From Candidatus Zhuqueibacterota bacterium (GTDB taxonomy: Bacteria > Zhuqueibacterota > Zhuqueibacteria > Thermofontimicrobiales > Thermofontimicrobiaceae): a stretch of DNA of 64,000 nucleotides. The notes below the pieces were generated by a model. The model did no database searches and had not been told where the DNA came from. It saw only the letters and a program-made list of their open reading frames with translations. Position numbers and translations under genes: made by a program. Positions 12,012 through 46,913 of this stretch are shown here, piece by piece (the first letter of the stretch is position 1; the number at the start of each line of letters is the position of its first letter). Location: contig JBMOPW010000020.1 of the NCBI GenBank assembly GCA_049322915.1, forward strand, positions 192,001-256,000, given 5' to 3'.

Positions 12012-12031
12012 TTTAATTCCTCCTGTTTTTA

Positions 12032-13502: not shown

Positions 13503-13528
13503 TTTTTCATGTCAAACCAACAAAATAC

Positions 13529-13557: not shown

Positions 13558-13652
13558 GTTAAAACTTGAACCACGGCCTGCTGTCGCCGGGGAACGAGGC
13601 GCCGGCGCACAATCAGGAGGCCGGTGAGCATTCAGCAAAAGAGAAAAAATTC

Positions 13653-30812: not shown

Positions 30813-31048
30813 TAAGTATTTGTGAATTATTTGGGATTCAGGCATACCCCGGAGCCAGGATTCGGACGTGCGGTTGAGCTACCCACCGAATTTTGGGCCG
30901 GCATCAGCATACGGCGAATGCCCGGAGGCGCGCCGTCGGGATTCTATTGGAGCGAAAAAAAAATGTATGATTCCTGAAAAAAAATTCTTATCTTGCCGGA
31001 GCTAATTTGTACACCAGAGTGGTTGCGCAGAGAAACACGGAGAACAGG

Positions 31049-31612
31049 ATGATTAGACTGGTTGTTGCGCTGGGAAATCCGGATCGGCAGTACCTGAAAA
31101 CGCGGCACAATATTGCCTGGCAGTTCATCGAATATTTATCCTTTTACAGCAATCTGGATTGGCAGAAAAAATTCAAGGGCGACTATGCAGCGCGCAGGTT
31201 TTCCGGCGAGATGATCTATTTTCTGAAACCGCAGACTTACATGAATCGCAGCGGAGAGAGCGTTCAGGCGCTGATGCAATTTTACAAGGTATTGCCGGAA
31301 GAGATGCTGGTCATTCACGACGACCTGGAACTGAATTTCGGTGAGGTCGGATTCAAAAAAGGCGGGGGAGTGGCCGGCCACAATGGGCTGAGGTCCATCG
31401 TCGCGTCGGCTGGCGCGGGCGATTTCTATCGGTTCCGACTGGGCATTTCCCGGCCAGACCACGGCAATGTCACGGCCTGGGTGCTGGGCAATTTTTCCGG
31501 GGATGAGACCATTCGGCTGTCGGGTTATCTGAAAAAAGCTGCGGCGATATTCGAAGACCACTTCACCGGAAATCTGGAAACACTGAGCGCTAAAACCAGA
31601 TGCATCCAGTGA
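31049..31612 (+). CDS. pth: Peptidyl-tRNA hydrolase
   Basis: LGNP..Y..TRHN, KPQTYMNRSG, HDDLEL, GHNGLRS. Confidence 0.97.
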   Translation: MIRLVVALGNPDRQYLKTRHNIAWQFIEYLSFYSNLDWQKKFKGDYAARRFSGEMIYFLKPQTYMNRSGESVQALMQFYKVLPEEMLVIHDDLELNFGEVGFKKGGGVAGHNGLRSIVASAGAGDFYRFRLGISRPDHGNVTAWVLGNFSGDETIRLSGYLKKAAAIFEDHFTGNLETLSAKTRCIQ

Positions 31613-31641
31613 CGTCAGCCCGGCGCGACCGTCCAGTCGAA

Positions 31642-33018
31642 TTAAACGTTCTTCTTTTTGGGGTCGAAATAGTCCAGTTTCTCCATTTTGCTGTGCAGGG
31701 TGCTGCGCGGTATTTTCAGCAGTCGGGCGGCATTGCTGATGTTGTGCGCGGACTCTTTCAACGCCCAATCAATGACGCTGCGCTCGTAGTCGCGCAGCAG
31801 TTCATCGAATGACCTGTCTGCCGGGAGCGGGCTTCCGGCGGCCGGCGCGGCGGGTGACTGACGCGAGAGGGCAGTCGGCTCTTCCGCGAAATTCAGCACA
31901 TCAATTTCCTGAGGCAGTGCCAGCATTCGCTGCACCGTGTTTTCGAGCTCGCGCACATTGCCCGGCCAGTGATAGCGCATCATCCGATCGAGTTGGGCCG
32001 GCGTGATGGTCAGCGTTTTTTTATTGCGGTTGTGCTTGGCGATGAAATGGTCGATCAAAATCGGCAGGTCGTCTTTGCGATCCCGCAGCGGCGGCACAGC
32101 AATGGGGATGATATTCAACCGGTAAAAAAGGTCCTCCCGAAATTTTCCTTCCTTCACTAACTGATGCAGATTCACTTTGGTAGCGCAGACCACGCGAAAA
32201 TCGACCGGAACCGCCTCCGAACTGCCGACCGGCTGAACCTCCCGTTCCTGTAAAACGCGGAGTAATTTCACTTGCAGCAGTAACGGCAGGTCGTCGATGT
32301 CATCGATGAAAAGTGTCCCGCCGTGGGCGCGCGCGATGTAGCCCTTGTGGCGTCGATGCGCTCCGGTGAAGGCGCCCTTTTCGTGGCCGAACAATTCGCT
32401 CTCCAGCAGGCTTTCCGGCAGTGTGGCGCAATTGATGGCAACGAACGGTCCATTGCTCCGCTCGCTGTACTGGTGCAGAATTCGCGCCACCAGTTCTTTG
32501 CCGGTCCCGCTTTCGCCCTGCACGAGTACGGTGTGATCTGTCGGAGCCACCGATTGCAGCGTCGCCATGAGCCTTTGCATGACCGGCGTACTGCCAATCA
32601 ACGCCGTGGTTTCGTATCGATGGATCCGATTTTTGAGCTGCCGGTTTTCCTGTAAAATTTCTTTGAATTGCCGGATATGCATCAGCATGCTCAGCAGTTT
32701 ATCTGGCGAAAATGGCTTGGTCACATAATCGTACGCGCCGAGTTTTAACGCGGCGACGGCCGTTTCCACCGTCGCGTACGCAGTGATGACGATGACCGTG
32801 CAGTCGGCATTTTTCTCCTTCGCGGCTTTCACAATATCCAGGCCGTTCAAGCCGGGCAGGCGCAAATCGGTCAGCACCACTTCGAATCGCTCGTGCTCCA
32901 GCATTTCCAGACCGGCGTTGCCGGTGTCACAGGCGCTGACGTGATAGCCCTCCTTCCGGAGCATCTCTGTCAGCGTAATGCGGGAAATTTTTTCGTCTTC
33001 AACAAGTAAAATATTCAT
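31642..33018 (-). CDS. Sigma-54-dependent response regulator (AtoC/ZraR-like)
   Basis: Receiver, [22 protein letters not shown], Fis HTH; Walker B reads LFIDDI. Confidence 0.95.
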   Translation of the reverse strand: MNILLVEDEKISRITLTEMLRKEGYHVSACDTGNAGLEMLEHERFEVVLTDLRLPGLNGLDIVKAAKEKNADCTVIVITAYATVETAVAALKLGAYDYVTKPFSPDKLLSMLMHIRQFKEILQENRQLKNRIHRYETTALIGSTPVMQRLMATLQSVAPTDHTVLVQGESGTGKELVARILHQYSERSNGPFVAINCATLPESLLESELFGHEKGAFTGAHRRHKGYIARAHGGTLFIDDIDDLPLLLQVKLLRVLQEREVQPVGSSEAVPVDFRVVCATKVNLHQLVKEGKFREDLFYRLNIIPIAVPPLRDRKDDLPILIDHFIAKHNRNKKTLTITPAQLDRMMRYHWPGNVRELENTVQRMLALPQEIDVLNFAEEPTALSRQSPAAPAAGSPLPADRSFDELLRDYERSVIDWALKESAHNISNAARLLKIPRSTLHSKMEKLDYFDPKKKNV

Positions 33019-34475
33019 GCTGCACCCTGAATTGGCAGTGTCACGTGAAAGGTGGTTTTCACACCGGGCTGGCTGGAAACGCGAATTGCGCCGGCGTGAT
33101 TTTCAATGATGCCGAGGCTGACGGATAGTCCCAGCCCGGTGCCCTTGCCCTCATCCTTTGTAGTGAAAAAAGGATCGAAAATTTTGTCCAGATGCTGCGG
33201 CTCAATGCCGGTTCCATTGTCGGAAATTTCGAAGAAGATGGCGTCGCTGTTGAGGACGCCGGTCGCGATGGTGATTTGGCCCTGAACTTCGATGCTGTCG
33301 ATGCTGTTGATCAGCAGATTCATGATCACCTCCTGAATGAGATGGCCGTCCGCTTGAATCGCCGGGAGCTCATCGGCAAGCTGCTTCCTGATGTGAATAT
33401 TGTTTTTCTCGAGCCGATATTGTATCAGCGACAGGACATTGTCGATCTCGTCATTGAGATTGATTCGGGCAACGTGCTTGGATTGTTGGCGCGAAAAACC
33501 GAGCAGCTTCTGCACAATGAGCGCAATGTGATCCAGCCCTTCGTTGGCCAATTGGAGATAGCGATGAGTCTGACCCAGATCCTCGGGCTCGCGTCCGATG
33601 GCGTACAGGCAGTTCTTGATGCCATTGAGTGGATTGTTGATTTCGTGGGCCACGCCGGAAGCCAGCCGTCCCACAGAGGCTAATTTTTCAGCGTGAAAAA
33701 CCTGGCGCTGGGCTTCCAATAATTGCCGCCGCGATTGAGCCAGACGCTTTTTCATTTCTTCAAAGTTTGTGACCAGAAAGCCGATTTCATCGCGGCCGGC
33801 GGTTAACTGGATGGGGCCATCGCGTTCCAGGTCCAATTGATTCATTTCCGAGACCAGTTGCCGAAGCGACTTGGTGAGGCGATGAATGAGAACATAAATC
33901 ACTGCCAGAATGATCACGACCACGCTCAGCGTGAGCGTCAACAGCAGGAAAAATAATTGTTTCATTTTCGCCCGTGTCGGCTCGCTGTCAAAGCCCATTT
34001 TCAGAACGCCCCATGATTTGCCATGGATTTGCAGCGGGAAGGTCACTTCGGTGATCCAGCCGAAATCGGCGATGTTGTGTATGCGGCAGATGGGTTCGAA
34101 ATTGCCGGAAGAAGCGAGCGCGCCCGTTCCGTCAGCGATCTGGCTCGCCCCGGAATAGCTGCTGCGAACCATGATGTGCCCGTGAGGATCGTACACATGG
34201 ATGAATTTGACCTGCTCGTTTTTCTTCAAAAAATTGTGGATATGATTCTCTAAAAATCCTTCCTGTTGCAGCAGACCGCTTTCCTGGTAGATGAGCGCGT
34301 CGAGGATGGAAACGGAGAACGTCTGCGTCACCAGCAGCGCGCTCTCTGCCTGGTTTTTCAAAATGAGCGAGCGCCAGTGAATGAGCACGCTGATGGAAAT
34401 GGCCATCATCAGGAAAATGATGAGGCTGCCCATGAGCAGGACGAAGCGCGTTTTCAGGCTGTAGAGGTAGCTCAT
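33015..34475 (-). CDS. Sensor histidine kinase (2 TM, HAMP, HisKA, HATPase)
   Basis: GVAHEINNPL, DNGTGI, FFTTKDEGKGTGLGL; ATGA overlaps with both neighbours. Confidence 0.95.
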   Translation of the reverse strand: MSYLYSLKTRFVLLMGSLIIFLMMAISISVLIHWRSLILKNQAESALLVTQTFSVSILDALIYQESGLLQQEGFLENHIHNFLKKNEQVKFIHVYDPHGHIMVRSSYSGASQIADGTGALASSGNFEPICRIHNIADFGWITEVTFPLQIHGKSWGVLKMGFDSEPTRAKMKQLFFLLLTLTLSVVVIILAVIYVLIHRLTKSLRQLVSEMNQLDLERDGPIQLTAGRDEIGFLVTNFEEMKKRLAQSRRQLLEAQRQVFHAEKLASVGRLASGVAHEINNPLNGIKNCLYAIGREPEDLGQTHRYLQLANEGLDHIALIVQKLLGFSRQQSKHVARINLNDEIDNVLSLIQYRLEKNNIHIRKQLADELPAIQADGHLIQEVIMNLLINSIDSIEVQGQITIATGVLNSDAIFFEISDNGTGIEPQHLDKIFDPFFTTKDEGKGTGLGLSVSLGIIENHAGAIRVSSQPGVKTTFHVTLPIQGAA

Positions 34476-35422
34476 GGCCTCTCCGGCATCGATGCAATGA
34501 TGGGTTCAATGTGGTCGTAATCAGCGTCCCGGGCAATGGCGAATCCGAAGGCGAACTCCGGGTCCCAGTCTTTCACGATGCGCTGATATTCAGTTTTTCG
34601 AATATCGATTTTCAGAAATGCGCTCTGAATGGCCTGCGCGATGACCGCGTCCAGTTCCGCATTGACAACGATGGGCGAGCCGGGAATCGGTTCTGAGGTG
34701 GCGAGAAATCGGATGCCTTTATCGATGAATTCGTAGGCCACGCGATCTTTCACCACGCCCACATCGAAATTTCCCTGCAAAACCTGATAGATAACGGTGT
34801 GATGATAATCGAAATAATGAATGGAATCCAGGTCGCTGATCGTCAATCCATATTTTTTAAATTCGTGGCGGAACAACCAGTTGCCGGAAAACGACTGCGG
34901 CGAAGGGAGAGCCAGTCGCTTGCCTTTGATATCTTTGATGGACTGCAACGGGCTATCGGACCGCGTCACCAGCACGGAGCGGAAAAACGGCTCGAATTGA
35001 TTGTTGAGCGGTTTTAGGATGCACTTCAGCGGAGATTTTTCGCGGGCAGCCAGGTAGATGTAGGTCCCCAAGAATGCCGCCTGAACCTGCCCGCTGACCA
35101 GTTGGTGAATGGTCTCTTCGTAGGAATTACTCAATTTCAATTCGAACCGATACGGCGTCGATTGAGTGAGGTAATTCATGATGGGCTGATACCCTTCGTA
35201 GATCAAATTGGGTGAAAACCTGGAGATGACGCCGAAATAGACAACCGGCTTCGCGCCGGCCGGCGTGGTCGGGGAAGCGGCCAAGTCGGATTCGTCCGGC
35301 GCGATGGAGATGTCAGTGATGGCAAAGTAGCCATAAAAAACAGCTATGACGAAAATGATGAATGCGCCAATGGCCAAAAAGAATTGTAGGAATTTCATCG
35401 TGTGCTTTTCGTTGAACTTCAT
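34472..35422 (-). CDS. PhnD/phosphate-phosphonate family substrate-binding protein (membrane anchored)
   Basis: YQPIMNYL, DIKGKRLALPSPQSFSG, HHTVIYQVLQGNFDVG, SEPIPGSPIVV, ARDADYD. Confidence 0.88.
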   Translation of the reverse strand: MKFNEKHTMKFLQFFLAIGAFIIFVIAVFYGYFAITDISIAPDESDLAASPTTPAGAKPVVYFGVISRFSPNLIYEGYQPIMNYLTQSTPYRFELKLSNSYEETIHQLVSGQVQAAFLGTYIYLAAREKSPLKCILKPLNNQFEPFFRSVLVTRSDSPLQSIKDIKGKRLALPSPQSFSGNWLFRHEFKKYGLTISDLDSIHYFDYHHTVIYQVLQGNFDVGVVKDRVAYEFIDKGIRFLATSEPIPGSPIVVNAELDAVIAQAIQSAFLKIDIRKTEYQRIVKDWDPEFAFGFAIARDADYDHIEPIIASMPERP

Positions 35423-35481
35423 GTTTTTGACGTTCCTTTGAGCAAAATGTATACCTCACAATTCTCTGGAAAAACAACAGC

Positions 35482-35510
35482 AATGTACGGTATGAAAAAA
35501 TCAAAGTCAA
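35482..35510 (-). promoter_or_regulatory. Candidate sigma-70 promoter for the PhnD-like/kinase/regulator operon
   Basis: Minus strand TTGACT-17-TACATT. Confidence 0.55.
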
Positions 35511-35516
35511 GGGGAT

Positions 35517-35630
35517 TGTCGAAATCTCGGCAGGCGGCTCATCGAAAAATCGATGAGTTGTCGGAGATTCGTGAGAGCAGGAGCCGTGCGTCGACCGAAG
35601 ATGTCTGGAAAATATGTCGCAATTGTTGCA
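35517..35630. promoter_or_regulatory. Cluster of candidate enhancer-binding-protein sites
   Basis: TGTCG-AAATCT-CGGCA (35517), CTCATCGA-AAAA-TCGATGAG (35538), TGTCG-GAGATT-CGTGA (35559), TGTCG-CAATTG-TTGCA (35615). Confidence 0.55.
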
Positions 35631-35650
35631 TGTGAGCGGAGGACATTGAC

Positions 35651-35665
35651 TGGCATGGACTTTGC
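35651..35665 (+). promoter_or_regulatory. Sigma-54 (-24/-12) promoter
   Basis: TGGCATG-GACT-TTGC, near-perfect consensus, 42 nt upstream of ATG 35708. Confidence 0.85.
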
Positions 35666-35707
35666 GATTGCTATTACACTTCATTTTATTTAAACTTAGG
35701 AGATGGT

Positions 35708-36334
35708 ATGCCGGACGTTAAACCACGCTTTGAATTCCGGGCATTCGCTCAGAATTTTGGAATCGTCGAGGACAGGATGCGGCAACTGAGTCCTCTGGAA
35801 AAAATTCGGGAGAGTCTGGAAATTTATATCATGTCAGCCGGCAATAATGAGAACAACACCAAAATCCGAGACGGCCTCATGGATATCAAGGTGTTTGTGC
35901 AGTCGGTCGACGGGCTGGAACAATGGAATCCGCGAATGAAAGGCGAATTTCCCATGTCAGCGCAGATGATTCGCGACGAAGTATTCCCGGCTTTTGGTGT
36001 GACGGCGCCCTCATTGAACCGCAGCGCCTACACGCTGGAGCAATATATCCGCGAAGTGGTTGCGCCCCATCCGGGCCTGGCTGCGGTGAATGTGTTCAAG
36101 CGCCGATTCGCTTTCACCATTAACAATTGCATTGCAGAACTGGCGGACGTCTACATCAATGGCGCCAGAATCCGAACGGCCAGCCTGGAATCTGTCGATT
36201 CGGAAGCGATCCTGCAAGCCAAATCAATGGTCGGGTTGAATGACTTCGAAAATGTCAATTACCTGCTGGCGATCAAGCGCGTCATTGGCATGGAACCGTT
36301 GCCAGAGACATCGCCCTATCGCGTCGGATTTTAA
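35708..36334 (+). CDS. Divergent CYTH-like (triphosphate tunnel) protein
   Basis: N-terminal RFEFRAF (ExExK-like), KIR..MDIK, VFKRR, ELADV, and C-terminal NY; AGGAG RBS. Confidence 0.6.
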   Translation: MPDVKPRFEFRAFAQNFGIVEDRMRQLSPLEKIRESLEIYIMSAGNNENNTKIRDGLMDIKVFVQSVDGLEQWNPRMKGEFPMSAQMIRDEVFPAFGVTAPSLNRSAYTLEQYIREVVAPHPGLAAVNVFKRRFAFTINNCIAELADVYINGARIRTASLESVDSEAILQAKSMVGLNDFENVNYLLAIKRVIGMEPLPETSPYRVGF

Positions 36335-36576
36335 CGCATCGCTTCGAAGAAAAGGGCGCCCGTGGAACTGGCGTCCGACGCGCCGGGATTGGGCTGGAAT
36401 CCGCTGAAGCCTTTGCGATGCCGGCGGCTTTTTCATCGCGAATTCAGCGTCGTCGATGACTTTGAAATTGCTCCGGCGCTTGTTCATTTCGGCGTGAGAT
36501 GGTCGCTTCCCGGACGACGACGGCGATGCTCCCAATTGAGACGAATGTTTGTTCATTTAAAAATGAAGGAAAAGGA

Positions 36577-37044
36577 ATGGCCAAAGAAATAGAACGCAAG
36601 TTCCTCGTGAACGGAGATGCCTGGCGCAAGCTGGCCCGTGGCATCCATTATCGGCAGGGCTATTTATCGACGGTGAAAGAACGGACGGTGCGCGTGCGTA
36701 CGGTCGACGCCAAAGGTTTTCTGACGATCAAAGGCATTACGGTCGGCGCGTCCCGGTCGGAGTTCGAGTACGAAATCCCGGTCGATGATGCCAATTTCAT
36801 GCTGGATCATCTCTGCGAGAAGCCGCTCATTGAGAAATATCGATACAAGATTCCATTTGAAGGACATGTATGGGAACTGGATGAGTTCGAAGGCGATAAC
36901 CAGGGGCTGATCGTGGCGGAGATCGAATTGAAACACGAGGACGAGATGTTCCAGCGACCGCAGTGGATCGGGCAGGAAGTGACCGGCGATCCGCGGTACT
37001 TCAATTCCAACCTGACGAAAAATCCATTCACCACCTGGCAATAG
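36577..37044 (+). CDS. CYTH domain protein (inorganic triphosphatase / TTM type)
   Basis: EIERKFLV, QGYL, RVR, LTIKG, EFEYEIP, IEKYRY, WELDEF, AEIEL, W.G.EVTGDPRYFNSNL. Confidence 0.95.
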   Translation: MAKEIERKFLVNGDAWRKLARGIHYRQGYLSTVKERTVRVRTVDAKGFLTIKGITVGASRSEFEYEIPVDDANFMLDHLCEKPLIEKYRYKIPFEGHVWELDEFEGDNQGLIVAEIELKHEDEMFQRPQWIGQEVTGDPRYFNSNLTKNPFTTWQ

Positions 37045-37056
37045 AGAGAAACCGCA

Positions 37057-38703
37057 ATGGCACAGAACGGGAATACACCGGAGAAAAATTTTACGAATAC
37101 GCCTGATGCATCCGGGATTGAACGCGACCCATTGGACATGAGCAACTACCATTTGAATTTGCTCCCCAAAAAGATCGTTTCGCCGCTGGAAAGCTTCCTG
37201 GCCAAAATCGGCGGGCCGCTCGCAATTCTGGTTTTCATCATTTTCAATTTTTTTATTGACTTCAAATTTCTGGACAATATCGATCCTGCCATTTTGAGCA
37301 AAGACGCCCGCGCTGTTTTCGACGCTGTTGGCGCGGACGCATTTCAGGCAAAAAACATCTCGATGCTGGCAGTGTTCGTTGCAGCGCTCATTTTGTGGGT
37401 GACTGAGGCCGTGCCCAATTATCTCACGTCGCTGATGCTGATCATCACTCTGGTGCTGACCGGCGTGCTCTCCGAAGTGGATGCATACCATCAGCTCGGG
37501 CATAAAATTATGTGGCTCAACATTCTGTCGTTCATCCTGGCCAGCATGCTGGTGAAGACCGGCGCTGCCAAGCGGTTTGCGCTCTGGTTCATCGTCCGGT
37601 TCGGGAAAAACGCATCGTCGATTTTTATCAGCTTCATCGCCATCAACCTGGTGTTGTCCGCGTTTATCTCCGCCACCACCGCTAAAGCCGCGATTCTGCT
37701 GCCAATTTTTATGGTGGTTGCCGCGATTTACGGCGCTCCCGGCGGAGCCAATAAGACGAACTTCGGGCGCAATATTGTCCTGCAGAATTTATTTCAGATC
37801 AACATCGGCGCCAGCGGATTTCTCACCGGATCGGGCGCGAATCTTTTGGCAGCGGCGCTCATCGGCGGCGCCCTTGGCGCTGAAATTTTTTATTCGGATT
37901 GGCTTATCATCGGCTTTCCGCTGGCCGTGGCGCTCATTCTCATCGGATGGGTGGTGGGCACGCGACTGATTTTCCCCCTGGCGGCAAGAGAACGAACGCC
38001 GCAAATCCAGGGTGGGATGGAGCGGCTTCGGAGCGAATTGAACCAACTTGGTCCCATTCGGACCGATGAAATAAAGTCCGTGTTGATCTTCATTGCCGTG
38101 CTGGCATTATGGGCGACCGACCGCTGGCATGGGCTGAGCGCTACAGCCGTTGCGTTCATGGGCGCTGTGATCGCGTTGATTCCCGGCATTGGGCCGGTGC
38201 GGTGGAACGATGTGGATATTCCCTGGCATCTGCTGCTTTTTTCGGCCGGCGCGTACACGCTGGGCGAGGGATTGCAGGTGACAGACCTGCCGGCGATCAT
38301 GGTTGATCGGCTTTTCATCAGCATGGGATTCAATGAAACCACGCCTTTCTGGGTTTTGTATCTCATCATCACCGGTTCCATGCTGTTCAGCGCGATCATT
38401 TTTCAATCCAAAACTATGCGCACGCTCATTTTTATCCCGATTGCCATTGGTGTGGCCAATCGATTCGGCTACCCGGTCATGAGCCTGGCCTTCCCGGCGG
38501 CGCTATTGATCGAGCACGTCTATGTGCTGCCGTTCAATAGCAAGCCGGCTGCGTTGCTGTATGTCACGGATCAGTATAGCTGGACTGATTCTTTCAAATT
38601 TGGATTTACGATGATGGTCATCGCCTGGATCATCAGCATCCTCATGGCGATGACGGTGTTTCGGTTCATGGGAATTACGCCTCATGGGCTGGGAATTTTT
38701 TGA
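37057..38703 (+). CDS. DASS/SLC13 family sodium-coupled anion symporter
   Basis: LWVTEAVP, FISATTAKAAILLP, TGSGAN, PWHLLLF; many TMs. Confidence 0.92.
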   Translation: MAQNGNTPEKNFTNTPDASGIERDPLDMSNYHLNLLPKKIVSPLESFLAKIGGPLAILVFIIFNFFIDFKFLDNIDPAILSKDARAVFDAVGADAFQAKNISMLAVFVAALILWVTEAVPNYLTSLMLIITLVLTGVLSEVDAYHQLGHKIMWLNILSFILASMLVKTGAAKRFALWFIVRFGKNASSIFISFIAINLVLSAFISATTAKAAILLPIFMVVAAIYGAPGGANKTNFGRNIVLQNLFQINIGASGFLTGSGANLLAAALIGGALGAEIFYSDWLIIGFPLAVALILIGWVVGTRLIFPLAARERTPQIQGGMERLRSELNQLGPIRTDEIKSVLIFIAVLALWATDRWHGLSATAVAFMGAVIALIPGIGPVRWNDVDIPWHLLLFSAGAYTLGEGLQVTDLPAIMVDRLFISMGFNETTPFWVLYLIITGSMLFSAIIFQSKTMRTLIFIPIAIGVANRFGYPVMSLAFPAALLIEHVYVLPFNSKPAALLYVTDQYSWTDSFKFGFTMMVIAWIISILMAMTVFRFMGITPHGLGIF

Positions 38704-38845
38704 CAGCAATGTTCATGGCCGTTGAAAAATGCTGACGCAGAAATCCTGTCCCGATTCGAAAGCGCGAGGCGTTTCGCTGTTGCGCTGACGTCCCTGAGTC
38801 GCTCACGCCTTCGCGGCTGGAAATCTGGGAGTCGTTTCAGATAAT

Positions 38846-39020
38846 GTAATTATTCAGGCATGTATTTTTGCCGCAAAGGCGCCAGGTCACGAAGCCCTGG
38901 CGTTAAAGTCAGGTAACAGAAATTCAATTTTATTTTTAAAACCAAATTCAGTTTTCAGAATTCATTTTTAAGATGTTTCTTTTTCTTTGTGCTTTTGAGA
39001 CTTGGTGGCTAAACAGTCAC
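38846..39020. mobile_element. MITE-like non-coding element, copy B (inverted relative to copy A; contains a nested REP-like palindrome at 38893-38926)
   Basis: Degenerate termini GTAATTATTCAGGCA / TGGCTAAACAGTCAC; both arms and most of the core are homologous to 19036-19227. Confidence 0.7.
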
Positions 39021-39085
39021 CAGATTTGAAAATGAAATAGTGGAATAACAAGAAGTTGGAATGAAAGTCATTGACGGTGAGGATG

Positions 39086-39730
39086 ATGTCTATTTTATTC
39101 AAATCAACAAAACAGTTAGTGATGCAGATTGATGAGTTTTTGGATGCCATTTCCCAGGGTAGTCTGCTGTTTAAATTGGGAGTGAAAAATTATCTGGAAA
39201 AAGATAATCCAAATTTCAATGAGCATCTCAAATCGATCGATTCCCTTGAAGGCAAAGCCGACGAATTGCGCCGTAATATTGAAAATCAACTCTACACTCA
39301 GACGCTCATCCCGGAGCACCGCGGCGATGTGTTGGGGCTGCTGGAGAGCACGGATAATGTGATCAACCAGATGAAAGCGACGCTGTTCCAGTTCGATATT
39401 GAAACGCCGGAAATTCCGGAATCATTGAATAAGCATTTCATCGACCTGACCGAGATGTCCGTGAACTCCACCGAGGTGTTGGTGAAGGCTATTCGCGCAT
39501 TTTTCAAGGATGTGAATTCGGTGAAAGATCATCTTCACAAAGTCTACTTTTTCGAAAAAGAAGCGGATCGAATTGGGGATGATCTCAAGCGCCATGCGTT
39601 CAAACTGAATATCGAGTTGAGCCAGAAATTTCATCTCCGGTACTTTGCGCTGCATATTCAGCAAGTGTCGGACAATGCCGAAGCGGTCGCTGACCGGCTG
39701 GACATCTGCACCATAAAGAGAACGATGTGA
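39086..39730 (+). CDS. DUF47 / PhoU-like phosphate transport regulator
   Basis: LEGKADELRR...LIPEHRGD...D and EKEADR...D.AE..AD duplicated motifs; immediately upstream of PiT. Confidence 0.92.
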   Translation: MSILFKSTKQLVMQIDEFLDAISQGSLLFKLGVKNYLEKDNPNFNEHLKSIDSLEGKADELRRNIENQLYTQTLIPEHRGDVLGLLESTDNVINQMKATLFQFDIETPEIPESLNKHFIDLTEMSVNSTEVLVKAIRAFFKDVNSVKDHLHKVYFFEKEADRIGDDLKRHAFKLNIELSQKFHLRYFALHIQQVSDNAEAVADRLDICTIKRTM

Positions 39731-39731
39731 C

Positions 39732-41222
39732 ATGGTATCGGCATTTTTAATAAGCGGACTGTTTCTCGGCTGGTCGTTGGGTGCGAATGATGCGGGCAAT
39801 GTCTTCGGCACGGCTGTGGCGACAAAAATGCTGCGCTTTAAAACTGCCGCCGCGATTTGCAGTGTGTTCGTCATTCTGGGCGCTGCATTCAGCGGGGCCG
39901 GCGCCTCGCACACGCTGGAGCGATTGGGATCTGTGAACGCCATTGCCGGCTCCTTCATTGTGGCGCTGGCCGCTGCCATCACGACGTTTTTCATGACGCG
40001 CATCAAAATACCGGTCTCCTCGAGCCAGGGAATTGTCGGAGCGATTATTGGCTGGAATTTCTTTGCCGGCTATTTGACGGACTTTCGCTCTTTAACGACA
40101 ATCATCCTGACCTGGATTCTCTGTCCGGCGCTTTCTGCGGCGTTCGCCATCGTGCTCTTTTTGATCATGAAGGCCTGGCTCAGCCGATTGAAAATCCACA
40201 TGCTGCAAATGGATATGCTGACCCGAGTCGGCCTGATCATTGTCGGCGCGTTTGGTTCGTACACACTGGGAGCGAACAATATTGCCAATGTCATGGGCGT
40301 CTTCGTGCCGGTGGCCGATTTCCCGACCATTCACATTGCCGGTTTTTTGAACTTCACCGGCACCCAGTTGTTGTTCGCGCTGGGCGGTTTCGCCATTGCC
40401 GCCGGCGTGTTCACCTATTCCCATAAAGTGATGGATACCGTGGGCAAGAGCCTGTTCAAGCTATCACCCATTGCGGCGTTGATCGTGGTGCTGGCCCATT
40501 CAATCGTCCTGTTCCTTTTTTCATCGGAAGGATTGGGGCAATTTCTCGCCTCTATCGGATTGCCATCCATTCCGCTCGTGCCTGTCTCCAGCACTCAGGC
40601 GATTGTTGGCGCTGTCATCGGGATTGGCATTTTAAAAGGCGGACGGCAGATCAAATTCAAAATTTTAGGCGGAATAGCCCTGGGCTGGGTGACGACTCCC
40701 ATCATGGCCGGCCTGGTGGCATTTCTCTCGCTGTTCATTTTTCAAAATGTCTTTGACCAGCAGGTGTACCGGAAAGTCTCTTTCGATATGAATGAGCAGG
40801 TCATTCGCCAACTCAATGCAGAGGGCATTGTCGATACAAGCCTTGTTAGTTTGCAGAAAACCGAGTTTAAAAATCCCGCCCGGTTCGAATCGGTGCTCCG
40901 CGACCAAACGACGCTGAACCATGACCAGCGGAAAAAGGTAATCGAATATTCATTCGTGGAATCATACAGAGTCAATCCTCGGCTCATTGATAGTAAAATC
41001 GATAGTCTGTGGTTCACGCCGGACCAGATGGCAGCGTTGAGATCCCTTGCCGGAAAAACCTATTCGTATCGCTGGCAGTTTGTGAACGATTTACAGCGAT
41101 GGGGTGAGGCGTGGCGGTTTCGCGATGAAACAAAATTTACCCGGAATTACAATAAAGACCTGCAATCGAAATTCGAATTTCTATTCGAGATGTTTCGGGT
41201 CGATGACGAGGCAATGAATTAG
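39732..41222 (+). CDS. Inorganic phosphate transporter, PiT family, with soluble C-terminal extension
   Basis: GANDAGN, PVSSSQ, GANNIAN, PVSSTQ signatures. Confidence 0.93.
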   Translation: MVSAFLISGLFLGWSLGANDAGNVFGTAVATKMLRFKTAAAICSVFVILGAAFSGAGASHTLERLGSVNAIAGSFIVALAAAITTFFMTRIKIPVSSSQGIVGAIIGWNFFAGYLTDFRSLTTIILTWILCPALSAAFAIVLFLIMKAWLSRLKIHMLQMDMLTRVGLIIVGAFGSYTLGANNIANVMGVFVPVADFPTIHIAGFLNFTGTQLLFALGGFAIAAGVFTYSHKVMDTVGKSLFKLSPIAALIVVLAHSIVLFLFSSEGLGQFLASIGLPSIPLVPVSSTQAIVGAVIGIGILKGGRQIKFKILGGIALGWVTTPIMAGLVAFLSLFIFQNVFDQQVYRKVSFDMNEQVIRQLNAEGIVDTSLVSLQKTEFKNPARFESVLRDQTTLNHDQRKKVIEYSFVESYRVNPRLIDSKIDSLWFTPDQMAALRSLAGKTYSYRWQFVNDLQRWGEAWRFRDETKFTRNYNKDLQSKFEFLFEMFRVDDEAMN

Positions 41223-41296
41223 TCAGCAATAATGGGGCGGCCGGGCAATTACGTTTTTAAATCACTCATTCAAAATATTTCTTCACAGGAGATGGC

Positions 41297-42517
41297 ATGA
41301 AAATTTTTACTCCCGTAGTCGTACTTTCTTTACTCTTACTTTTCAGTATTTCTTTCGCGCAGACAGAGGCTCAAATCGCGCCGGGTCGAACGGAGTGGGA
41401 TCATGGAATCCTCATGTTCAAGTCGGATGACGGCGCGTTTCAGACCCGCTTTGATATGCGCGCTTATCTCAATGGCGGCTATTTCTTCGAGGACGAAGAT
41501 AGGCTCAGCAGCGGCACGCACGTGCGAAAAGCGCGATTCACCTTGAAGACATTGCTATATAACACCTGGCGGGCGGAATGGGATATTGATGTGGCTGAAG
41601 GCGTTGTGGAAATAAAAGATATGTTCCTGTCATTCGTGGGATTCGATAACTCCCACATCAAGTTTGGCCATTTCAAAATGCCGTTGGGACTGGAAGAATT
41701 GATGACGTCGCGGTACCAGACATTTGTGGAGCGAGCCTATCCCATGATGGCGTTTGAAACCGACCGCCATTTGGGCCTGCAATATTCGCGGTGGGGAACG
41801 AATTGGAATCTCAGGTCAGCAGTTTTCGGCCAGACGATGGATGCCGTTAAAAATAAGTCAATGGACGAAACCGGGAATGGCGCCGCGGCGCGCCTGGTGT
41901 ACACGCCTATCCAGAATTCGAAAGCCATCATTCACACCGGTCTGGCGCTCGCCTATCAGAAACCGGATGATGAAAGCAACGCCATGGAATTTCAGAGCGA
42001 AGCTGAGACGAAGCTGGGTGACGCCGAAATCCTTTCCACAGGGACGGTGTTCGATGTGAGCTATGCGTTCAAAACCGGACTGGAAGGAGTTATGGTTTAC
42101 AAAAATCTCTCGCTACAGGGAGAATATATTCAGACGAATTTACAGCGAATGAACGGCGCCGAGAATGCTACGTTGAGCGGCGGCTATGCGTTCATCAGTT
42201 GGATACTCACCGGCGAGATGCGTCCCTGGGTGAAAGAAGAAGGGGAGTTCGGTCAGATCATTCCCAAGAGCAACACCGTTGGCGCCTGGGAAATTGCGGC
42301 CCGCTACAGTCATCTCAATTTGAGCGATGACAAGGCCGGCATCACCGGCGGCAAGGCCAATAATTATACACTGGGATTGAACTGGTACGCCAATCCCAAC
42401 ATTCGGTTTATATTAAATTACACCTACGTGGATAATTCCATTTTCGCCACCAACGATGGATTCCCCGGTAATTACGATTTCAGCGTGCTCCATTTTTTGG
42501 CGATGGTTTTCTTTTAA
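41297..42517 (+). CDS. OprO/OprP phosphate/polyphosphate-selective porin
   Basis: RKARF, GHFKMPLGLEELMTSRYQTFVER, GAWEIAARYS, TLGLNWYAN, terminal F. Confidence 0.92.
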   Translation: MKIFTPVVVLSLLLLFSISFAQTEAQIAPGRTEWDHGILMFKSDDGAFQTRFDMRAYLNGGYFFEDEDRLSSGTHVRKARFTLKTLLYNTWRAEWDIDVAEGVVEIKDMFLSFVGFDNSHIKFGHFKMPLGLEELMTSRYQTFVERAYPMMAFETDRHLGLQYSRWGTNWNLRSAVFGQTMDAVKNKSMDETGNGAAARLVYTPIQNSKAIIHTGLALAYQKPDDESNAMEFQSEAETKLGDAEILSTGTVFDVSYAFKTGLEGVMVYKNLSLQGEYIQTNLQRMNGAENATLSGGYAFISWILTGEMRPWVKEEGEFGQIIPKSNTVGAWEIAARYSHLNLSDDKAGITGGKANNYTLGLNWYANPNIRFILNYTYVDNSIFATNDGFPGNYDFSVLHFLAMVFF

Positions 42518-42771
42518 TCTGACTGGCATTTTAAAAAAGTGCCGAAGTAGTGGAAATCTTGCTGTGACCAATTTAGCACAGAGGTGAGAGTCGCGCGCCG
42601 GGACTTATTTAAAAAAAATGATAGTGAAACGAAATCATTCTAATCAGCAATGAGATGATGCAGTGACCATAGCTATTGTGCACCTAAATTCTGATTCCGG
42701 AGTCTAATAATTTGAAGCTTTTTTATATTGCGTTGAATCGATTGAGTAGAACACAATCTGGAGGGAAAATC

Positions 42772-44106
42772 ATGAAATTATGGCCTGTTCTATTGTTGTT
42801 AAGTTTTTCCATTTTGCTGACGTCATGCAGCACGGATGAATCGACTGGTCTGGATGACAAAAATGAAAAAAGTGAATTCAAGCTCCTCATCAATGAATTT
42901 ATGGCCAGCAACGACGCGGCCAGCGCTGACGCGGATGACAACGGCAGCGGCGATAACAGCCCCTATGACGACTGGTTTGAAATCTATAATGCCGACAGCG
43001 TCGCAGTGAATGTCGCTGGAATGTACGTGACCGACAATCTGGAAAATTTGAACCAGTACCAGATTCCCGGTGCCGATCCGGCAAAGACGACCATTCCTCC
43101 CGGCGGATTCATTGTCATCTGGGCCGATAATGAACCGGATCAGGGTCCCCTGCACGCGAACTTCGCCCTGTCCGGCAGCGGCGAATCCATCGCCATCGTC
43201 GAGTCAGATGGCCGGCTCATCATCAATTCTCTGACGTACGAGGCGCAGCAGACCGACTTCTCTTACGGCCGCAATCCGGATGGCAGCGATACGTGGCAGG
43301 TCTTTGCCCAGGCAACGCCGGCCGCATCGAACACCGGCGCATCATCCAATTTGCCGCCGACGATCAGCGAGATTTCTGTCACCCCGGCGACAATCCAGGC
43401 CGGGGAGTTGGTCACCGTGTCGGCCAAAGTTACGGACACAAATTTGAGCGGCGTTTCGCTCAGTTACGGGGAGGCCGGAAATATTTCAGCCTCAGCGACG
43501 ATGGCGCTGGCCAATGCCGTGTATCAGGCGCAGATTGGCCCCTTCGATGACGGAAAAGTGATCTATTATTTTATCACGGCGACCGATGAAGAAGCAGCCC
43601 GGACGCAGAGCGACACGCTGCATTTTGAAGTCGGCTATGTCCCGCCGGTGCTTTTTATCAATGAATTTTTAGCCAGCAATGATTCCTCGTTCAAAGATCC
43701 GGACGAGGACGATCTCGACGGCGACCCCCAGGACGACTGGATCGAAATTTACAATCCCGGCCCGAATCCGGTGAACATCGCCGGCATGTATATCACGGAT
43801 AAATTGTCAAATCTCACGGCCTGGCAAATCCCTGAAACAGACTCTGCAAAAACGACAATCGATGCCGGTGGGTTTGTCATCATTTGGGCGGACAAAGAGA
43901 TGCAACAGGGACCGCTGCATGTCGACATCAAATTATCCGGGGATGGTGAGCAAATCGGGCTCATTGCGCCGAACGGCACGACTGTAATCGATTCTCTGAC
44001 TTACGGCGCGCAGACCGAAGACATCTCCTTTGGACGGTCTCCGGATGGCAGTCCCAACTGGATTCTTTTCAATACGCCATCGCCGGGCGCTTTGAACGGG
44101 AAATAA
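42772..44106 (+). CDS. Lipoprotein with two lamin-tail domains and a central Ig-like domain
   Basis: LLTSC lipobox; two INEF(M/L)ASN...DDW.EIYN...D.S.GR.PDG...W...TP/SP repeats; GGAGG RBS. Confidence 0.88.
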   Translation: MKLWPVLLLLSFSILLTSCSTDESTGLDDKNEKSEFKLLINEFMASNDAASADADDNGSGDNSPYDDWFEIYNADSVAVNVAGMYVTDNLENLNQYQIPGADPAKTTIPPGGFIVIWADNEPDQGPLHANFALSGSGESIAIVESDGRLIINSLTYEAQQTDFSYGRNPDGSDTWQVFAQATPAASNTGASSNLPPTISEISVTPATIQAGELVTVSAKVTDTNLSGVSLSYGEAGNISASATMALANAVYQAQIGPFDDGKVIYYFITATDEEAARTQSDTLHFEVGYVPPVLFINEFLASNDSSFKDPDEDDLDGDPQDDWIEIYNPGPNPVNIAGMYITDKLSNLTAWQIPETDSAKTTIDAGGFVIIWADKEMQQGPLHVDIKLSGDGEQIGLIAPNGTTVIDSLTYGAQTEDISFGRSPDGSPNWILFNTPSPGALNGK

Positions 44107-44232
44107 TCCGGGAGTAAAGTCTGCATGCTGCCGGCGTTATGCTGCTGGGCGCGCTGATGCAGACGTCTTGCATGCATTGGCAGCGTGGACTGTGACTGAA
44201 TTGCAATTACCATAAAACTGATTTGAAGCGAT

Positions 44233-44970
44233 ATGAAATTGCTTAACTACTGGATAAGCCTGGCGATCATCTCCGGCTGCAGTGTCAGCGAAAACGCTGT
44301 GCAGCCGGAGCATACCGGGCCATCATTGAAAATCATCTCACAATTTCTACTGGATGTGCCTGAACCTTCGGGACTGGCATTCGACCGATCCCGGAGCGCA
44401 ATGTGGACTGTCAGCGATCAGAATGGCTGCCTGTATAAACTGGACCTGACTGGCAACATTATTCAGACGATGACCTTGGAAGCGACCGATCTCGAAGGCG
44501 TCAGTTTCAATTGGCATACCGGTGAATTGTTAGTCGTGGAAGAAAACGCCGGCGATGTGGTGCAGTTGGATTCGCTGGGAGCTATTTTGGGAAAGCATCA
44601 GATTCTGCAGACCCACGATAATTCCGGTTTGGAAGGTGTCTGCGCAGACGATAAAGGCAGGATTTTTGTCATCAAAGAGAAAGCGCCGGGAAAGTGGATT
44701 GCACTGAATCCCGATTTCTCAATTGCAGAGACGAAGGAATTGACCTTTGCGCCTGATTACTCGGATATTGCCTGCGATACCAGTGACAATAGATTCTGGA
44801 TTCTCAGCGATCAGGGTCAGCAATTGTTCCTCTGGGATACCAATGAAGGAGTATTGGAAAGCTATCACGTGGCAATAGAAAATCCCGAAGGAATTGTCAT
44901 TGATTTTGTCAATCAGATATTTTATATTGTGAGCGATTCTCAGCAGCGACTATTCCTTTTAACTCAATGA
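44233..44970 (+). CDS. SdiA-regulated/YjiK-like beta-propeller lipoprotein
   Basis: ISGC lipobox; EPSGL, DLEGV, GLEGV, DYSDI, NPEGI blade motifs. Confidence 0.8.
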   Translation: MKLLNYWISLAIISGCSVSENAVQPEHTGPSLKIISQFLLDVPEPSGLAFDRSRSAMWTVSDQNGCLYKLDLTGNIIQTMTLEATDLEGVSFNWHTGELLVVEENAGDVVQLDSLGAILGKHQILQTHDNSGLEGVCADDKGRIFVIKEKAPGKWIALNPDFSIAETKELTFAPDYSDIACDTSDNRFWILSDQGQQLFLWDTNEGVLESYHVAIENPEGIVIDFVNQIFYIVSDSQQRLFLLTQ

Positions 44971-45043
44971 TATAAACAACAGTTGAGCAGCGATTCTGCT
45001 TATAAATAATTCATTAGAAAATTTACAAACGTGGAGGTTTAAC

Positions 45044-46309
45044 ATGAAAAGAGGGGTTACTATTTTATTAGTACTTTTTTCCTTGCTGGTTGTGTCAATT
45101 TCATTCGGACAGGCCCCGGCATTGAAAATCAATGAGTTCCTGGCCAGTAACGACACGGCCAATACCGATCCTTTTGGCGGTCATGATGACTGGATTGAAA
45201 TTTACAATGCAGGAACAGAGCCAGTCGACATAGGCGGCATGTTCATCACCGACGATCTGACCGAGCCCAACAAGGTACAAATACCGGCGACGCGACCGGA
45301 TTCAACGACGATTCAGCCGGGCGGCTTTCTCATCATCTGGGCTGACGATGAACCGGAGCAAGGTGTTTTGCATGTAGAAATTAAATTAGGCGCCGGCGGC
45401 GAGCAAATTGGGCTGTATGCCAGCGACGCTGCTACAGTCATCGACACGCTCACCTTCGGAGACCAGACCACTGATCAGTCCGCCGGGCGTCTCGCTGACG
45501 GCGAAAACAACTGGGTATTTTTCTCGAATCCGACTCCGGGTTATACCAACCGCATGATTCCCATAATCGTGAATGAATTCCTGGCCAGCAATGATTTTAT
45601 TACAACGGATCCTTACGGCGAAAATGATGACTGCATCGAAATTATGAACGTGGGAATTTTCCCGGTGAACATTGGTGGCATGTACGTGACTGACAAACTG
45701 TCGTCTCCCACGGAATGGCAAATCCCGACCGATATGCCGGATTCCACGACACTTCAGCCTGGCCAGATTCTTGTGCTCTGGGCGGATAAACAGACGTCCC
45801 AGGGAGTTTTCCATGTCGATATTAAACTAAGCGGCGACGGCGAGCAGATTGGAATTTTCGCTTCCGATGGCATCACAGTCATCGATTCTCTTTCCTTTGG
45901 ACCGCAACTTCCGGATACCTCGTATGGGCGAATTAGCGATGGCATGAACTCATGGACCCATTTTTCAACCCCAAGCCTGGGAGCCTCCAATTCAACGGGC
46001 GTCATCTCGGCAGTATTCGATACTGACGTCACTGCGAACACAATTGGTTCCTTTGAATTATATCAGAACTACCCCAATCCGTTCAACTCGGTCACCACAA
46101 TCCGATTCAATCTGCCACAAGCGCAGAAAATAAATATTTCAGTGTTCAACGTGATTGGCCAAAAAATTGCAACTCTCATTGATGGATTTCTTAAAGCAGG
46201 CCGTGGAGAGGTGCATTGGGATGCTGCGAACCAGGTGAGCGGAGTCTATTTCTATCAGATTAAATCCGATAACTATACCATGACCCGACGAATGGTTCTA
46301 TTGAAGTAG
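45044..46309 (+). CDS. Secreted protein with two lamin-tail domains and a C-terminal T9SS-A-like sorting domain
   Basis: Signal peptide, two LTD repeats, LYQNYPNPFNSVTTIRF...SGVYFY...RRMVLLK. Confidence 0.9.
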   Translation: MKRGVTILLVLFSLLVVSISFGQAPALKINEFLASNDTANTDPFGGHDDWIEIYNAGTEPVDIGGMFITDDLTEPNKVQIPATRPDSTTIQPGGFLIIWADDEPEQGVLHVEIKLGAGGEQIGLYASDAATVIDTLTFGDQTTDQSAGRLADGENNWVFFSNPTPGYTNRMIPIIVNEFLASNDFITTDPYGENDDCIEIMNVGIFPVNIGGMYVTDKLSSPTEWQIPTDMPDSTTLQPGQILVLWADKQTSQGVFHVDIKLSGDGEQIGIFASDGITVIDSLSFGPQLPDTSYGRISDGMNSWTHFSTPSLGASNSTGVISAVFDTDVTANTIGSFELYQNYPNPFNSVTTIRFNLPQAQKINISVFNVIGQKIATLIDGFLKAGRGEVHWDAANQVSGVYFYQIKSDNYTMTRRMVLLK

Positions 46310-46344
46310 CCATATTTCATCTCATGAAATAAGCGAAATTACCT

Positions 46345-46386
46345 GCATGGCAGAAGGGACAACTCTTCTGCTGTGCTCATTTTTTG
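46345..46386 (+). terminator. Intrinsic terminator ending the phosphate locus
   Basis: GCATGGCAGAAG-loop-CTTCTGCTGTGC followed by a T-tract. Confidence 0.7.
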
Positions 46387-46747
46387 ATTTCTCCTGATCC
46401 TTGTGCCGGCCTAAAAAAAGTTTCTGAGATCCCCAGTTTAGTCTTGTATAGTCTAACTTAAGCAATCATAAAATTTAAATGGATGAAGTTGTTGTTACGG
46501 TTCTGAAGGTGTAATAACAATTTTGTATTTAATCCCAAAATATGTTAATCAATCTTAAGAAAAACTAGAGATTGTTCGATATATTAATTATAATAGGCCT
46601 TAATTTTTAAAGCGTTAAGGGCCTGATTGTGTTAAACATCATATTTTTCAGTCATTAAAAAAATGTAATTATTAAGCGGGGGTAGAAGACCAATAAAAAT
46701 AGCGGATTAGTAGAACGAGTTTATAGGGGTGGAAAAAGGAATATAGC

Positions 46748-46776
46748 TTGCATTTAAAAATTGAAATAATTACGTT
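46748..46776 (+). promoter_or_regulatory. Candidate sigma-70 promoter for the TPR triplet
   Basis: TTGCAT-17-TACGTT in an AT-rich intergenic region. Confidence 0.35.
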
Positions 46777-46913
46777 ATACGCATTCTGAAAATGCGTTCC
46801 CAACGATTCCCAAAGCTCGATAAGAAGAATGGAGCATTATCAATCGGCGATGAAAAGCGTGACATTAGTTTATCCTCTGAGAGAAAAGATTTTTACAACA
46901 ACATCGGGTGACC

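Follow-up and report, generated by a model that had tools for sequence, protein, structure and literature searches.

A Sigma-54-Linked Gene Cluster with Paired Triphosphate-Tunnel Proteins as a Candidate System for Condensed Phosphate Acquisition in a Zhuqueibacterota Genome

The subject of this analysis is a stretch of 64,000 nucleotides from the genome of Candidatus Zhuqueibacterota bacterium (GenBank assembly GCA_049322915.1, contig JBMOPW010000020.1, positions 192,001 to 256,000), which is referred to below as the window. The locus under study occupies positions 31642–46309 of the window and includes a three-gene sensor unit and, directed away from it, nine co-oriented genes encoding two different proteins of the triphosphate-tunnel type, transporters, a porin and surface proteins. 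Based on the gene content, the predicted folds and the conservation of the cluster, we suggest that the locus may provide the substrate-induced acquisition of condensed inorganic phosphate (tri-, pyro- or short-chain polyphosphate), and we put the probability of this reading at about 45%. The twelve open reading frames (ORFs) listed in the original prediction, which was made from the sequence alone, are all present at the coordinates proposed for them, and their families agree with those assigned. The ORFs were retained, but for several genes a later start is likelier, namely 36577 for the CYTH protein, 39083 or 39086 for the DUF47 protein and 42772 for the first lamin-tail lipoprotein.

A lack of joint conservation of the genes had been named beforehand among the points that would refute the prediction, which passed this test: the order and orientation of the genes proved to be strongly kept across phyla. 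Orthologues of the carrier of the DASS/SLC13 family encoded in the locus were found at 57–84% identity in 10 of 60 relatives, and one more was found at 41%. In the ten loci taken from these DASS-orthologue genomes (the close relatives), the sensor triad, the gene of a variant triphosphate-tunnel protein (hereafter, the variant), the CYTH gene and the DASS gene always have the same order and orientation (10/10). The genes for DUF47, the PiT permease and the porin accompany them in nine loci, and in the tenth the contig ends before them. The full set of a lamin-tail domain (LTD) protein, a beta-propeller and a second LTD protein is found in 7/10 loci; another is truncated by the end of its contig, and G014 lacks the set although 5.7 kb of sequence is available. 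Within the class, the variant gene occurs in 14 of the 61 genomes. An orthologue of the sensor protein is present in all 14 of these (13 at E ≤ 1e-103; the remaining one is truncated by a contig end), whereas among the 47 genomes without the variant it was found in 2 (G006, 82% complete, and G056). The class genomes being kin, these figures characterize the sample and cannot serve as a statistical test.

A wider scan of species-representative genomes was conducted with the variant protein as a query, and the best 80 of 162 relatives were kept. The loci belong to KSB1, Calditrichota, Cloacimonadota, Aminicenantes and other Acidobacteriota, Elusimicrobiota, Ignavibacteria, Bacteroidales, Gemmatimonadota, Krumholzibacteria and several proteobacterial groups. 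Forty loci have at least 5 kb upstream and at least 9.5 kb downstream, and partner genes were counted in this full-flank set. The CYTH gene was found in 39/40 loci, the porin gene in 37/40, and the DASS, DUF47 and PiT genes in 36/40 each; these five core partners occur together in 34 of the 40 loci. The core is joined by the surface module in 25/40, the sensor triad is present in 21/40, and all eleven partners are present in 17/40. The triad and the surface module are largely restricted to loci of the Fibrobacteres–Chlorobi–Bacteroidetes (FCB) type. Both are absent from the loci of Acidobacteriota, where the porin gene lies upstream.

Twelve distant loci, picked for having no DASS or PiT match, were inspected separately. 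TctABC replaces DASS in two of them, a full Ppx-GppA gene replaces the CYTH gene in one (from Atribacterota), and in one locus the tunnel pair lies between a CHAD protein and two PPK2 genes. Other neighbours are Na/Pi-PhoU (one locus), Metallophos (two) and PiT (three, two of them with DUF47). Judging from these annotations, the neighbours in the loci without DASS again point to phosphate and polyphosphate. Together with the NeuTTM-like CYTH protein and the Ppx-GppA fusions described below, the PPK2, CHAD, Ppx and Na/Pi-PhoU neighbours in distant loci strengthen the phosphorus theme that had been proposed for the cluster. As a side observation, a LysR regulator and TctABC take the places of the triad and DASS in loci from Deltaproteobacteria and Atribacterota (among L048, L102 and L062).

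The sensor triad is encoded on the minus strand by genes for a sigma-54-dependent response regulator (31642–33018), a sensor histidine kinase (33015–34475) and a membrane-anchored periplasmic binding protein of the PhnD family (34472–35422). In line with the proposed translational coupling, the genes of the binding protein and the kinase, as well as those of the kinase and the regulator, share ATGA overlaps. The regulator matches Response_reg, Sigma54_activat and HTH_8 (that is, REC, AAA+ and Fis-type helix-turn-helix domains), is NtrC/AtoC-like by NCBIfam, and shows GAFTGA and Walker A motifs in its translation. The kinase consists of a first transmembrane segment, a periplasmic loop of about 140 residues, a second transmembrane segment, and HAMP, HisKA and HATPase_c domains. 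The binding protein matches Phosphonate-bd (PF12974, E 7e-57), and its N-terminus is a predicted transmembrane anchor. A PF12974 gene was found only once in the genome, and ABC transporter genes are absent near it. The gene context indicates that the binding protein is a putative sensor and not a part of an ABC transporter.

Among proteins of solved structure, ArrX is the nearest to the sensor (E 4e-20) and ranks above PtxB, HtxB and AioX. According to the accessible part of a study of these proteins (PMC5908839), AioX, ArxX and ArrX have the pocket residues Y88, C106, Y131, S161, S163, H192 and D210 in common, and ArrX binds arsenate and, about 150-fold more weakly, phosphate. The cysteine of ArrX (C106 of AioX) is aligned with Gly119 of the sensor, and PhnD also has a glycine there. 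Among 30 orthologues of the sensor, Y101, G119 and H207 are invariant, and S177 and S179 are kept in at least 90%. R68 is also invariant in this set, and ArrX has a methionine at the aligned position.

In its composition, the triad corresponds to the AioXSR, ArxXSR and ArrXSR systems as far as they are described in the same part of that source (PMC5908839): a PhnD-family protein is encoded with a histidine kinase and without ABC genes, the regulator is an NtrC-type sigma-54 activator with GAFTGA, and a sigma-54 promoter is present at the target. The differences concern the arsenic-site cysteine, which is replaced by glycine, the methionine of ArrX, in place of which R68 is found, and the target, which is a molybdenum oxidoreductase in those systems and a putative transport and hydrolysis operon here. 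Taken as a whole, the regulatory design is well supported: a three-component sensor of the XSR type is combined with a candidate enhancer and a promoter of the sigma-54 type. Substrate-induced control of an anion transporter by sigma-54 and an NtrC-type regulator is also known from DctBD-dctA and PgtABC-pgtP, where an external substrate, sensed in the periplasm, induces the carrier that transports it; those systems have other sensor families and other substrates. The system had also been placed outside PhoBR/Pst, which is correct only insofar as a separate regulator is encoded in the locus.

As had been proposed, the divergent triad faces a sigma-54 promoter of the -24/-12 type. A motif scan placed it, as TGGCAT-N5-TTGCG, at 35651–35666 of the plus strand, 43 nt 5′ of the ATG of the variant gene. 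The sequence TGGCATGGACTTTGC (35651–35665) is the sole exact match to TGGCAYN5TTGC in the window, and the stricter pattern TGGCACN5TTGCW has no match there. With one mismatch allowed, the window contains 8 matches to the former pattern versus 12.4 expected, so the motif alone is not significant, and it is its position and conservation that carry weight. The conservation was assessed in related loci with the relaxed motif NGGYAY-N5-TTG within 200 nt upstream of the first plus-strand gene. This motif was found in all 29 loci with a divergent triad (one further locus was skipped, its sequence being masked) and in 14 of 48 loci without an adjacent divergent triad. The background frequency is 0.016 per 200 nt (193 matches in 2.44 Mb). 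At least 10 of the 11 consensus positions are kept in 17/30 triad loci versus 2/48 others; the remaining triad loci have TTGA or TTGT where the consensus has TTGC. The rpoN gene was found in the genome.

Comparison of orthologous intergenic regions revealed a palindrome, TGTCGAAATCTCGGCA (TGTCGA-N4-TCGGCA, 35517–35532), about 134 bp upstream of the promoter, and two degenerate copies of it at 35540–35555 and 35559–35574; a repeat search of the intergenic region of the locus itself had missed them. With up to two mismatches allowed, the window contains no other match to the palindrome. At the same tolerance it was found in 11 of 12 KSB1-type orthologous intergenic regions, often twice. The region 35517–35574 is therefore listed as a candidate enhancer (upstream activating sequence): the sites are arranged as one would expect for an enhancer to which a sigma-54 activator binds, and the regulator of the triad may bind there. 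It should also be mentioned that in the loci from Melioribacteraceae (L071, L086, L091 and others) a sigma-54-type motif lies 50–58 nt before the first gene and the sensor triad was not found within 10 kb. The motif being kept there without a nearby triad, the regulator must be encoded elsewhere or be of another type.

The first gene behind the promoter (35708–36334, plus strand) encodes the variant, a predicted cytoplasmic protein that has no match in Pfam or NCBIfam. It is the most conserved protein of the locus, its orthologues within the class being 70–81% identical, and a profile search assigned 1670 cluster representatives to its family at E ≤ 1e-3 and 288 at E ≤ 1e-30. The AlphaFold2 (AF2) model built from 120 sequences has a predicted local distance difference test score (pLDDT) of 97 and shows the eight-stranded tunnel fold. 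It matches thiamine triphosphatases (ThTPase), ygiF, archaeal CYTH proteins (1YEM) and SaTTM, with Foldseek E-values down to 5e-7 and Z-scores of 11–13.6 over 150–187 residues. Based on these fold matches, the variant can be considered a predicted triphosphate-tunnel protein.

The sequence of the variant departs from that of the CYTH family. It is not matched by the Pfam model, and instead of ExExK it carries R7-x-E9-x-R11. Among 120 members of the family, this motif does not vary at E9 and R11, and R7 is kept in at least 90%; K52, R54, K61, K131, R133, E71, E144 and E161 are also conserved in at least 90%, with K131 invariant. No relation between the variant and the neighbouring CYTH protein was found by BLASTP, and comparison of the variant family with the CYTH orthologues by hhalign gave a probability of 0.15%, which is not significant. 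A complex prediction for the two proteins scored 0.00 and is uninformative for or against their pairing. In four of the 12 longer family members scanned, a C-terminal match to Ppx-GppA was found; three of these matches pass the curated cut-off, and the fourth is weak (22 bits versus a cut-off of 27).

The closest parallels are the plant TTM1/2 proteins and the tunnel domains of yeast Vtc2/3, which, according to the part of PMC8233210 that was accessible, have the TTM fold without ExExK. Like them, the variant lacks the hallmark motif, and it retains the tunnel fold and the basic residues. The same text states that TTM-fold proteins without ExExK, such as plant TTM1/2, favour pyrophosphate (PMC8233210). 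The variant differs from both in that it has no detectable sequence relation to them, is a single-domain bacterial protein and is linked to transporters or Ppx.

The second gene (36577–37044, ORF open from 36499, plus strand) encodes a canonical CYTH/TTM protein (PF01928, E 8e-16). Its sole matches among solved structures at E ≤ 0.01 are those of NE1496/NeuTTM (2FBL and 3TYP, E 2.5e-17), which the accessible part of PMC3440374 describes as a specific inorganic triphosphatase. The protein has the N-terminal ExExK motif and the opposing basic and acidic residues of the tunnel: ExExK, R39, R41, K52, K87, R89, E100, D102, E115 and E117 are invariant or nearly so in 64 CYTH orthologues. In this respect it is similar to NeuTTM and to bacterial CYTH tripolyphosphatases, with the difference that it sits in a putative uptake operon, is always paired with the variant, and has a predicted activity. 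A role as a class IV adenylate cyclase (CyaB) was considered and rejected. Such cyclases are marked by an HF motif four residues before ExExK (PMC8233210, in the portion available); from the likely start, just three residues precede ExExK in this protein, so the HF motif cannot be present.

The third gene (37057–38703, plus strand) encodes a divergent DASS/SLC13 carrier. The assignment is based on Na_sulph_symp (PF00939, E 6e-48, 164 bits), on TIGR00785 (189.8 bits, slightly below the cut-off of 198.6) and on matches to solved DASS proteins, the fold and the profile being those of the family. In the family, Na+ and the substrate are bound by two Ser-Asn-Thr hairpin motifs, which are not found in this protein: the hairpin tips are of the SNT type in the solved relatives and are A-T-T and S-K-T here, with K-P replacing P-P-N. 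The residues A206, T207, S451, K452, T453, R455, K496 and P497 are invariant in 61 of 61 cluster-linked DASS proteins. Such replacements suggest a cationic site that is probably Na+-independent and would accept a highly charged anion. Among the cluster-linked DASS proteins (L069–L100 and others), two subtypes can be distinguished, 38 proteins with at least 55% identity to the window protein and 22 below this value, and their tip motifs are SATTAK/NSKPA and PATAAR/SAKPN, respectively. In Ignavibacteria, the DASS subtype tracks the type of the adjacent CYTH protein.

The next genes, all on the plus strand, form a PiT-DUF47 pair and a porin gene. The PiT accessory protein of the DUF47/PhoU_div family (39071–39730, with the likely start at 39083 or 39086) is encoded directly before the PiT (PHO4) permease (39732–41222). 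The permease carries a cytoplasmic (soluble) C-terminal extension of about 150 residues (40770–41222), for which neither a match to Pfam or a known family nor a helix-turn-helix match was found; the orthologue from G014 shares this extension, and most other orthologues are 347–430 residues long. The porin (41297–42517) belongs to the OprO/OprP family (Porin_O_P, E 4e-55). The combination of a Porin_O_P channel with an inner-membrane phosphate carrier resembles OprP/OprO with Pit/Pst in the Pho regulon of Pseudomonas. In contrast to the PhoBR control in Pseudomonas, a dedicated sensor triad and sigma-54 are present here, and the DASS carrier, the tunnel proteins and the surface module are additional; the O- or P-type selectivity of the porin, which depends on residues of the constriction, is not assignable by match score.

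The surface module follows on the same strand and consists of a lipoprotein with two LTDs and the lipobox LLTSC (42772–44106, ORF open from 42712), a five-bladed YjiK-like beta-propeller lipoprotein (44233–44970) and a secreted protein with two LTDs (45044–46309). The last one carries the C-terminal sorting domain that marks cargo of type IX secretion (T9SS; PF18962 and TIGR04183). In Pfam, the propeller has weak matches to Phytase-like and SdiA-regulated. The alignment of its orthologues shows an invariant Cys16, as expected of a lipoprotein, and eleven invariant acidic residues. Its AF2 model (pLDDT 91) has five blades, and the nearest folds are E. coli YjiK (3QQZ, TM-score 0.69–0.70), bacterial glutaminyl cyclases and NHL domains. 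A phytase function was considered for the propeller and found no support in the fold search, in which no phytase is among the top matches; the Phytase-like match in Pfam is weak.

Based on the above results, we propose the following scheme for the locus, in which the ligands, substrates, activities and direction of transport are inferred. The first step would be the binding of a phosphorus oxyanion by the membrane-anchored PhnD-family protein of the ArrX/AioX sensor type, which would signal via the adjacent histidine kinase to the NtrC-type regulator. The regulator would then bind the conserved TGTCGA-N4-TCGRCA sites and activate the sigma-54 promoter before the variant gene. Outside the cell, the two lipoproteins and the T9SS-secreted protein may capture or trim the polymer, and the OprO/P-type anion porin would admit small fragments across the outer membrane. 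The DASS carrier with its Lys/Arg-rich site is proposed to import short condensed phosphate (tri-, tetra- or pyrophosphate), and PiT with its DUF47 partner would import orthophosphate (Pi). In the cytoplasm, the imported chain would be degraded by the NeuTTM-like tripolyphosphatase and the variant, the latter possibly handling longer chains or the pyrophosphate product. The tunnel pair may thus hydrolyze tripolyphosphate (PPPi) to pyrophosphate (PPi) and then to Pi, or longer chains to PPPi. In its most far-reaching form, the proposal is that the locus represents the first dedicated bacterial pathway for external tri-/polyphosphate, with surface capture and shortening, a porin, a DASS carrier lined by Lys and Arg and independent of Na+ that imports tri- or tetraphosphate, a new branch of tunnel enzymes acting alongside a NeuTTM-like enzyme, and an ArrX-like sensor retuned from arsenate to a condensed phosphate. 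This wider claim is put forward tentatively, and we hold it with less confidence than the acquisition of condensed phosphate as such.

Several observations weigh against the acquisition of condensed phosphate. The known substrates of the DASS and TctABC families are carboxylates and sulfate, and the best NCBIfam match of the PiT permease is a sulfate permease model (71 bits versus a cut-off of 400). The porin matches OprP (E 2e-22) and OprO (E 8e-21) alike, so a preference for pyrophosphate cannot be claimed. The fold matches of the propeller include no known phosphatase. LTDs gave 20 matches in about ten proteins of this genome (G000), some of them longer than 1000 residues, and with such common domains the surface module may be generic. 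As for the counts in the wider scan, the loci were found via the variant, so they tell which partners accompany the variant and not the reverse; in addition, these loci overlap with the close relatives (L023 is G001, and L025 is G014), and kin are not independent. An association between the cluster and the absence of PPK1 was also tried and discarded: PPK1 was found in 2 of 14 genomes with the cluster and 20 of 47 without it, which is too weak and confounded by phylogeny.

A further point of this kind concerns transcription. A single transcript of the nine co-oriented genes had been proposed, and the terminator given for it was found as an intrinsic terminator-like hairpin followed by a T run at 46345–46376 (plus strand, hairpin search). 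This hairpin and the unrelated flanking genes, for peptidyl-tRNA hydrolase (Pth) upstream and tetratricopeptide repeat (TPR) proteins downstream, also confirm the boundaries given for the locus. The idea of one transcript is weakened by an unusually long gap of about 380 bp between the DASS and DUF47 genes (38704–39082). Two hairpins lie in it, a terminator-like one at the stop codon of the DASS gene and a GC-rich one near 38880, and the fold of the gap is modestly stabler than that of shuffled sequences (z -2.1). With this gap and hairpin, the last six genes may not need the sigma-54 promoter here. In orthologous loci, the gap measures 19–69 nt in seven cases, 36 nt in G014 and about 770 nt in G059.

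Among the alternatives, the one that survives best is a module for orthophosphate uptake or homeostasis, which we consider rather unlikely. The sensor would bind Pi, the porin, PiT-DUF47 and a Pho87/90-like DASS carrier would transport it, and the tunnel proteins would clear toxic tri- and pyrophosphate by-products or play a regulatory role. In its favour, PiT-DUF47 and porins of the OprP type are systems for Pi, the match of the porin to OprP is slightly better than that to OprO, and Pi is transported by DASS members of yeast. Proteins of the PhnD family, too, are able to bind Pi, as ArrX does weakly according to the part of PMC5908839 referred to above. However, such a module does not account for the fact that two tunnel proteins are paired with transporters almost without exception (39/40). 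It explains neither the Ppx fusions of the variant family, nor the exchange of DASS for the tricarboxylate-type importer TctABC, nor the presence of a secreted and lipoprotein surface module in 25/40 loci. We regard the acquisition of condensed phosphate as the most economical reading.

The system may also be directed to an organic or other phosphorus compound, such as nucleotides or DNA captured by LTDs, phytate or other phosphoesters, phosphonate- or phosphite-like anions, or a phospho-carboxylate, with the tunnel enzymes acting on an organic triphosphate. This is improbable in our opinion. LTDs accompany extracellular nucleases and phosphoesterases in other bacteria (Pfam description, ExeM), the propeller has the Phytase-like and SdiA-regulated matches mentioned above, the sensor belongs to a family that binds phosphonate and phosphite, and DASS and TctABC are carboxylate carriers by family. 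Nevertheless, based on Pfam annotation, no nuclease, phosphatase, C-P lyase, PtxD or HtxA gene is present among the genes of the locus or its neighbours, and no phytase was among the top fold matches of the propeller. The CYTH protein, moreover, is nearest to a specific inorganic triphosphatase and leaves no room for the HF motif of the cyclases (PMC8233210, as cited above in part). Least of all do we expect a non-phosphorus oxyanion (arsenate, sulfate or thiosulfate, selenate), a reading borrowed from the kinship of the sensor to the arsenate sensor ArrX, from weak NCBIfam matches to a putative selenate-binding protein and the CysP sulfate permease, and from the Pfam name of DASS (sodium:sulfate symporter). 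Against it, the position of the cysteine common to AioX, ArxX and ArrX in the accessible text of PMC5908839 is occupied by glycine, which PhnD has there as well; Pfam annotated no ars, arr, aio or sulfur-assimilation genes in the locus, and the partners in distant loci are polyphosphate genes.

With regard to the genomic background, searches of the genome, which is 96% complete, gave no match to PPK1, PPK2, Ppx-GppA or the VTC domain, so an internal polyphosphate pool formed via known routes is an unlikely substrate. The genome contains two weak PstS-like matches outside the locus and a second CYTH gene at a contig end. A scan of positions 31000–47000 against Rfam gave just a chance-level match to IS009 (E 0.6). 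In the rest of the window, a gene for a family-I inorganic pyrophosphatase lies at 62904–63584, 16 kb downstream of the locus; the enzyme could complete the pathway by hydrolyzing pyrophosphate set free by the tunnel enzymes. The region 561–16353 contains four tandem genes for MacB-like FtsX permeases (about 800 residues each), an ABC ATPase gene and a gene for an HlyD-type adaptor. A second pair of sigma-54 activator and histidine kinase genes (13566–16353) faces the MacB-like genes, and a near-consensus -24/-12 motif, TGGCACGGATATTGA (13395–13409, minus strand), lies a short way upstream of the HlyD gene. Probably, the MacB-like and HlyD genes form a second sigma-54-controlled operon.

In the accessible text of a paper on the Pho regulon of Flavobacterium (PMC8115612), CYTH, DUF47 and sigma-54 are not mentioned, and in that of PMC5193443 a single passage concerns sigma-54 and is unrelated. 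The cluster had been called undescribed, and this agrees with our full-text literature searches, in which no description of it was found. To our knowledge, there are no known bacterial genes for feeding on tri- or polyphosphate. External polyphosphate serves as a phosphorus source for some marine bacteria, algae and a haloarchaeon, and in 2026 the route of access to it, and whether it is imported, were still described as unknown in the part of the paper at hand (PMC13318637). The locus supplies named candidates for each step of such a route, namely a sensor, a porin, a carrier and hydrolases, in lineages characteristic of sediments and sludge (KSB1, Ignavibacteria, Bacteroidales, Aminicenantes and other Acidobacteriota). 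At the level of protein families, the variant would define a large unclassified branch of triphosphate-tunnel proteins, and the carrier a DASS subgroup with a cationic site instead of the Na+/substrate motifs. The triad, in turn, would extend the ArrX/AioX sensor family beyond arsenic.

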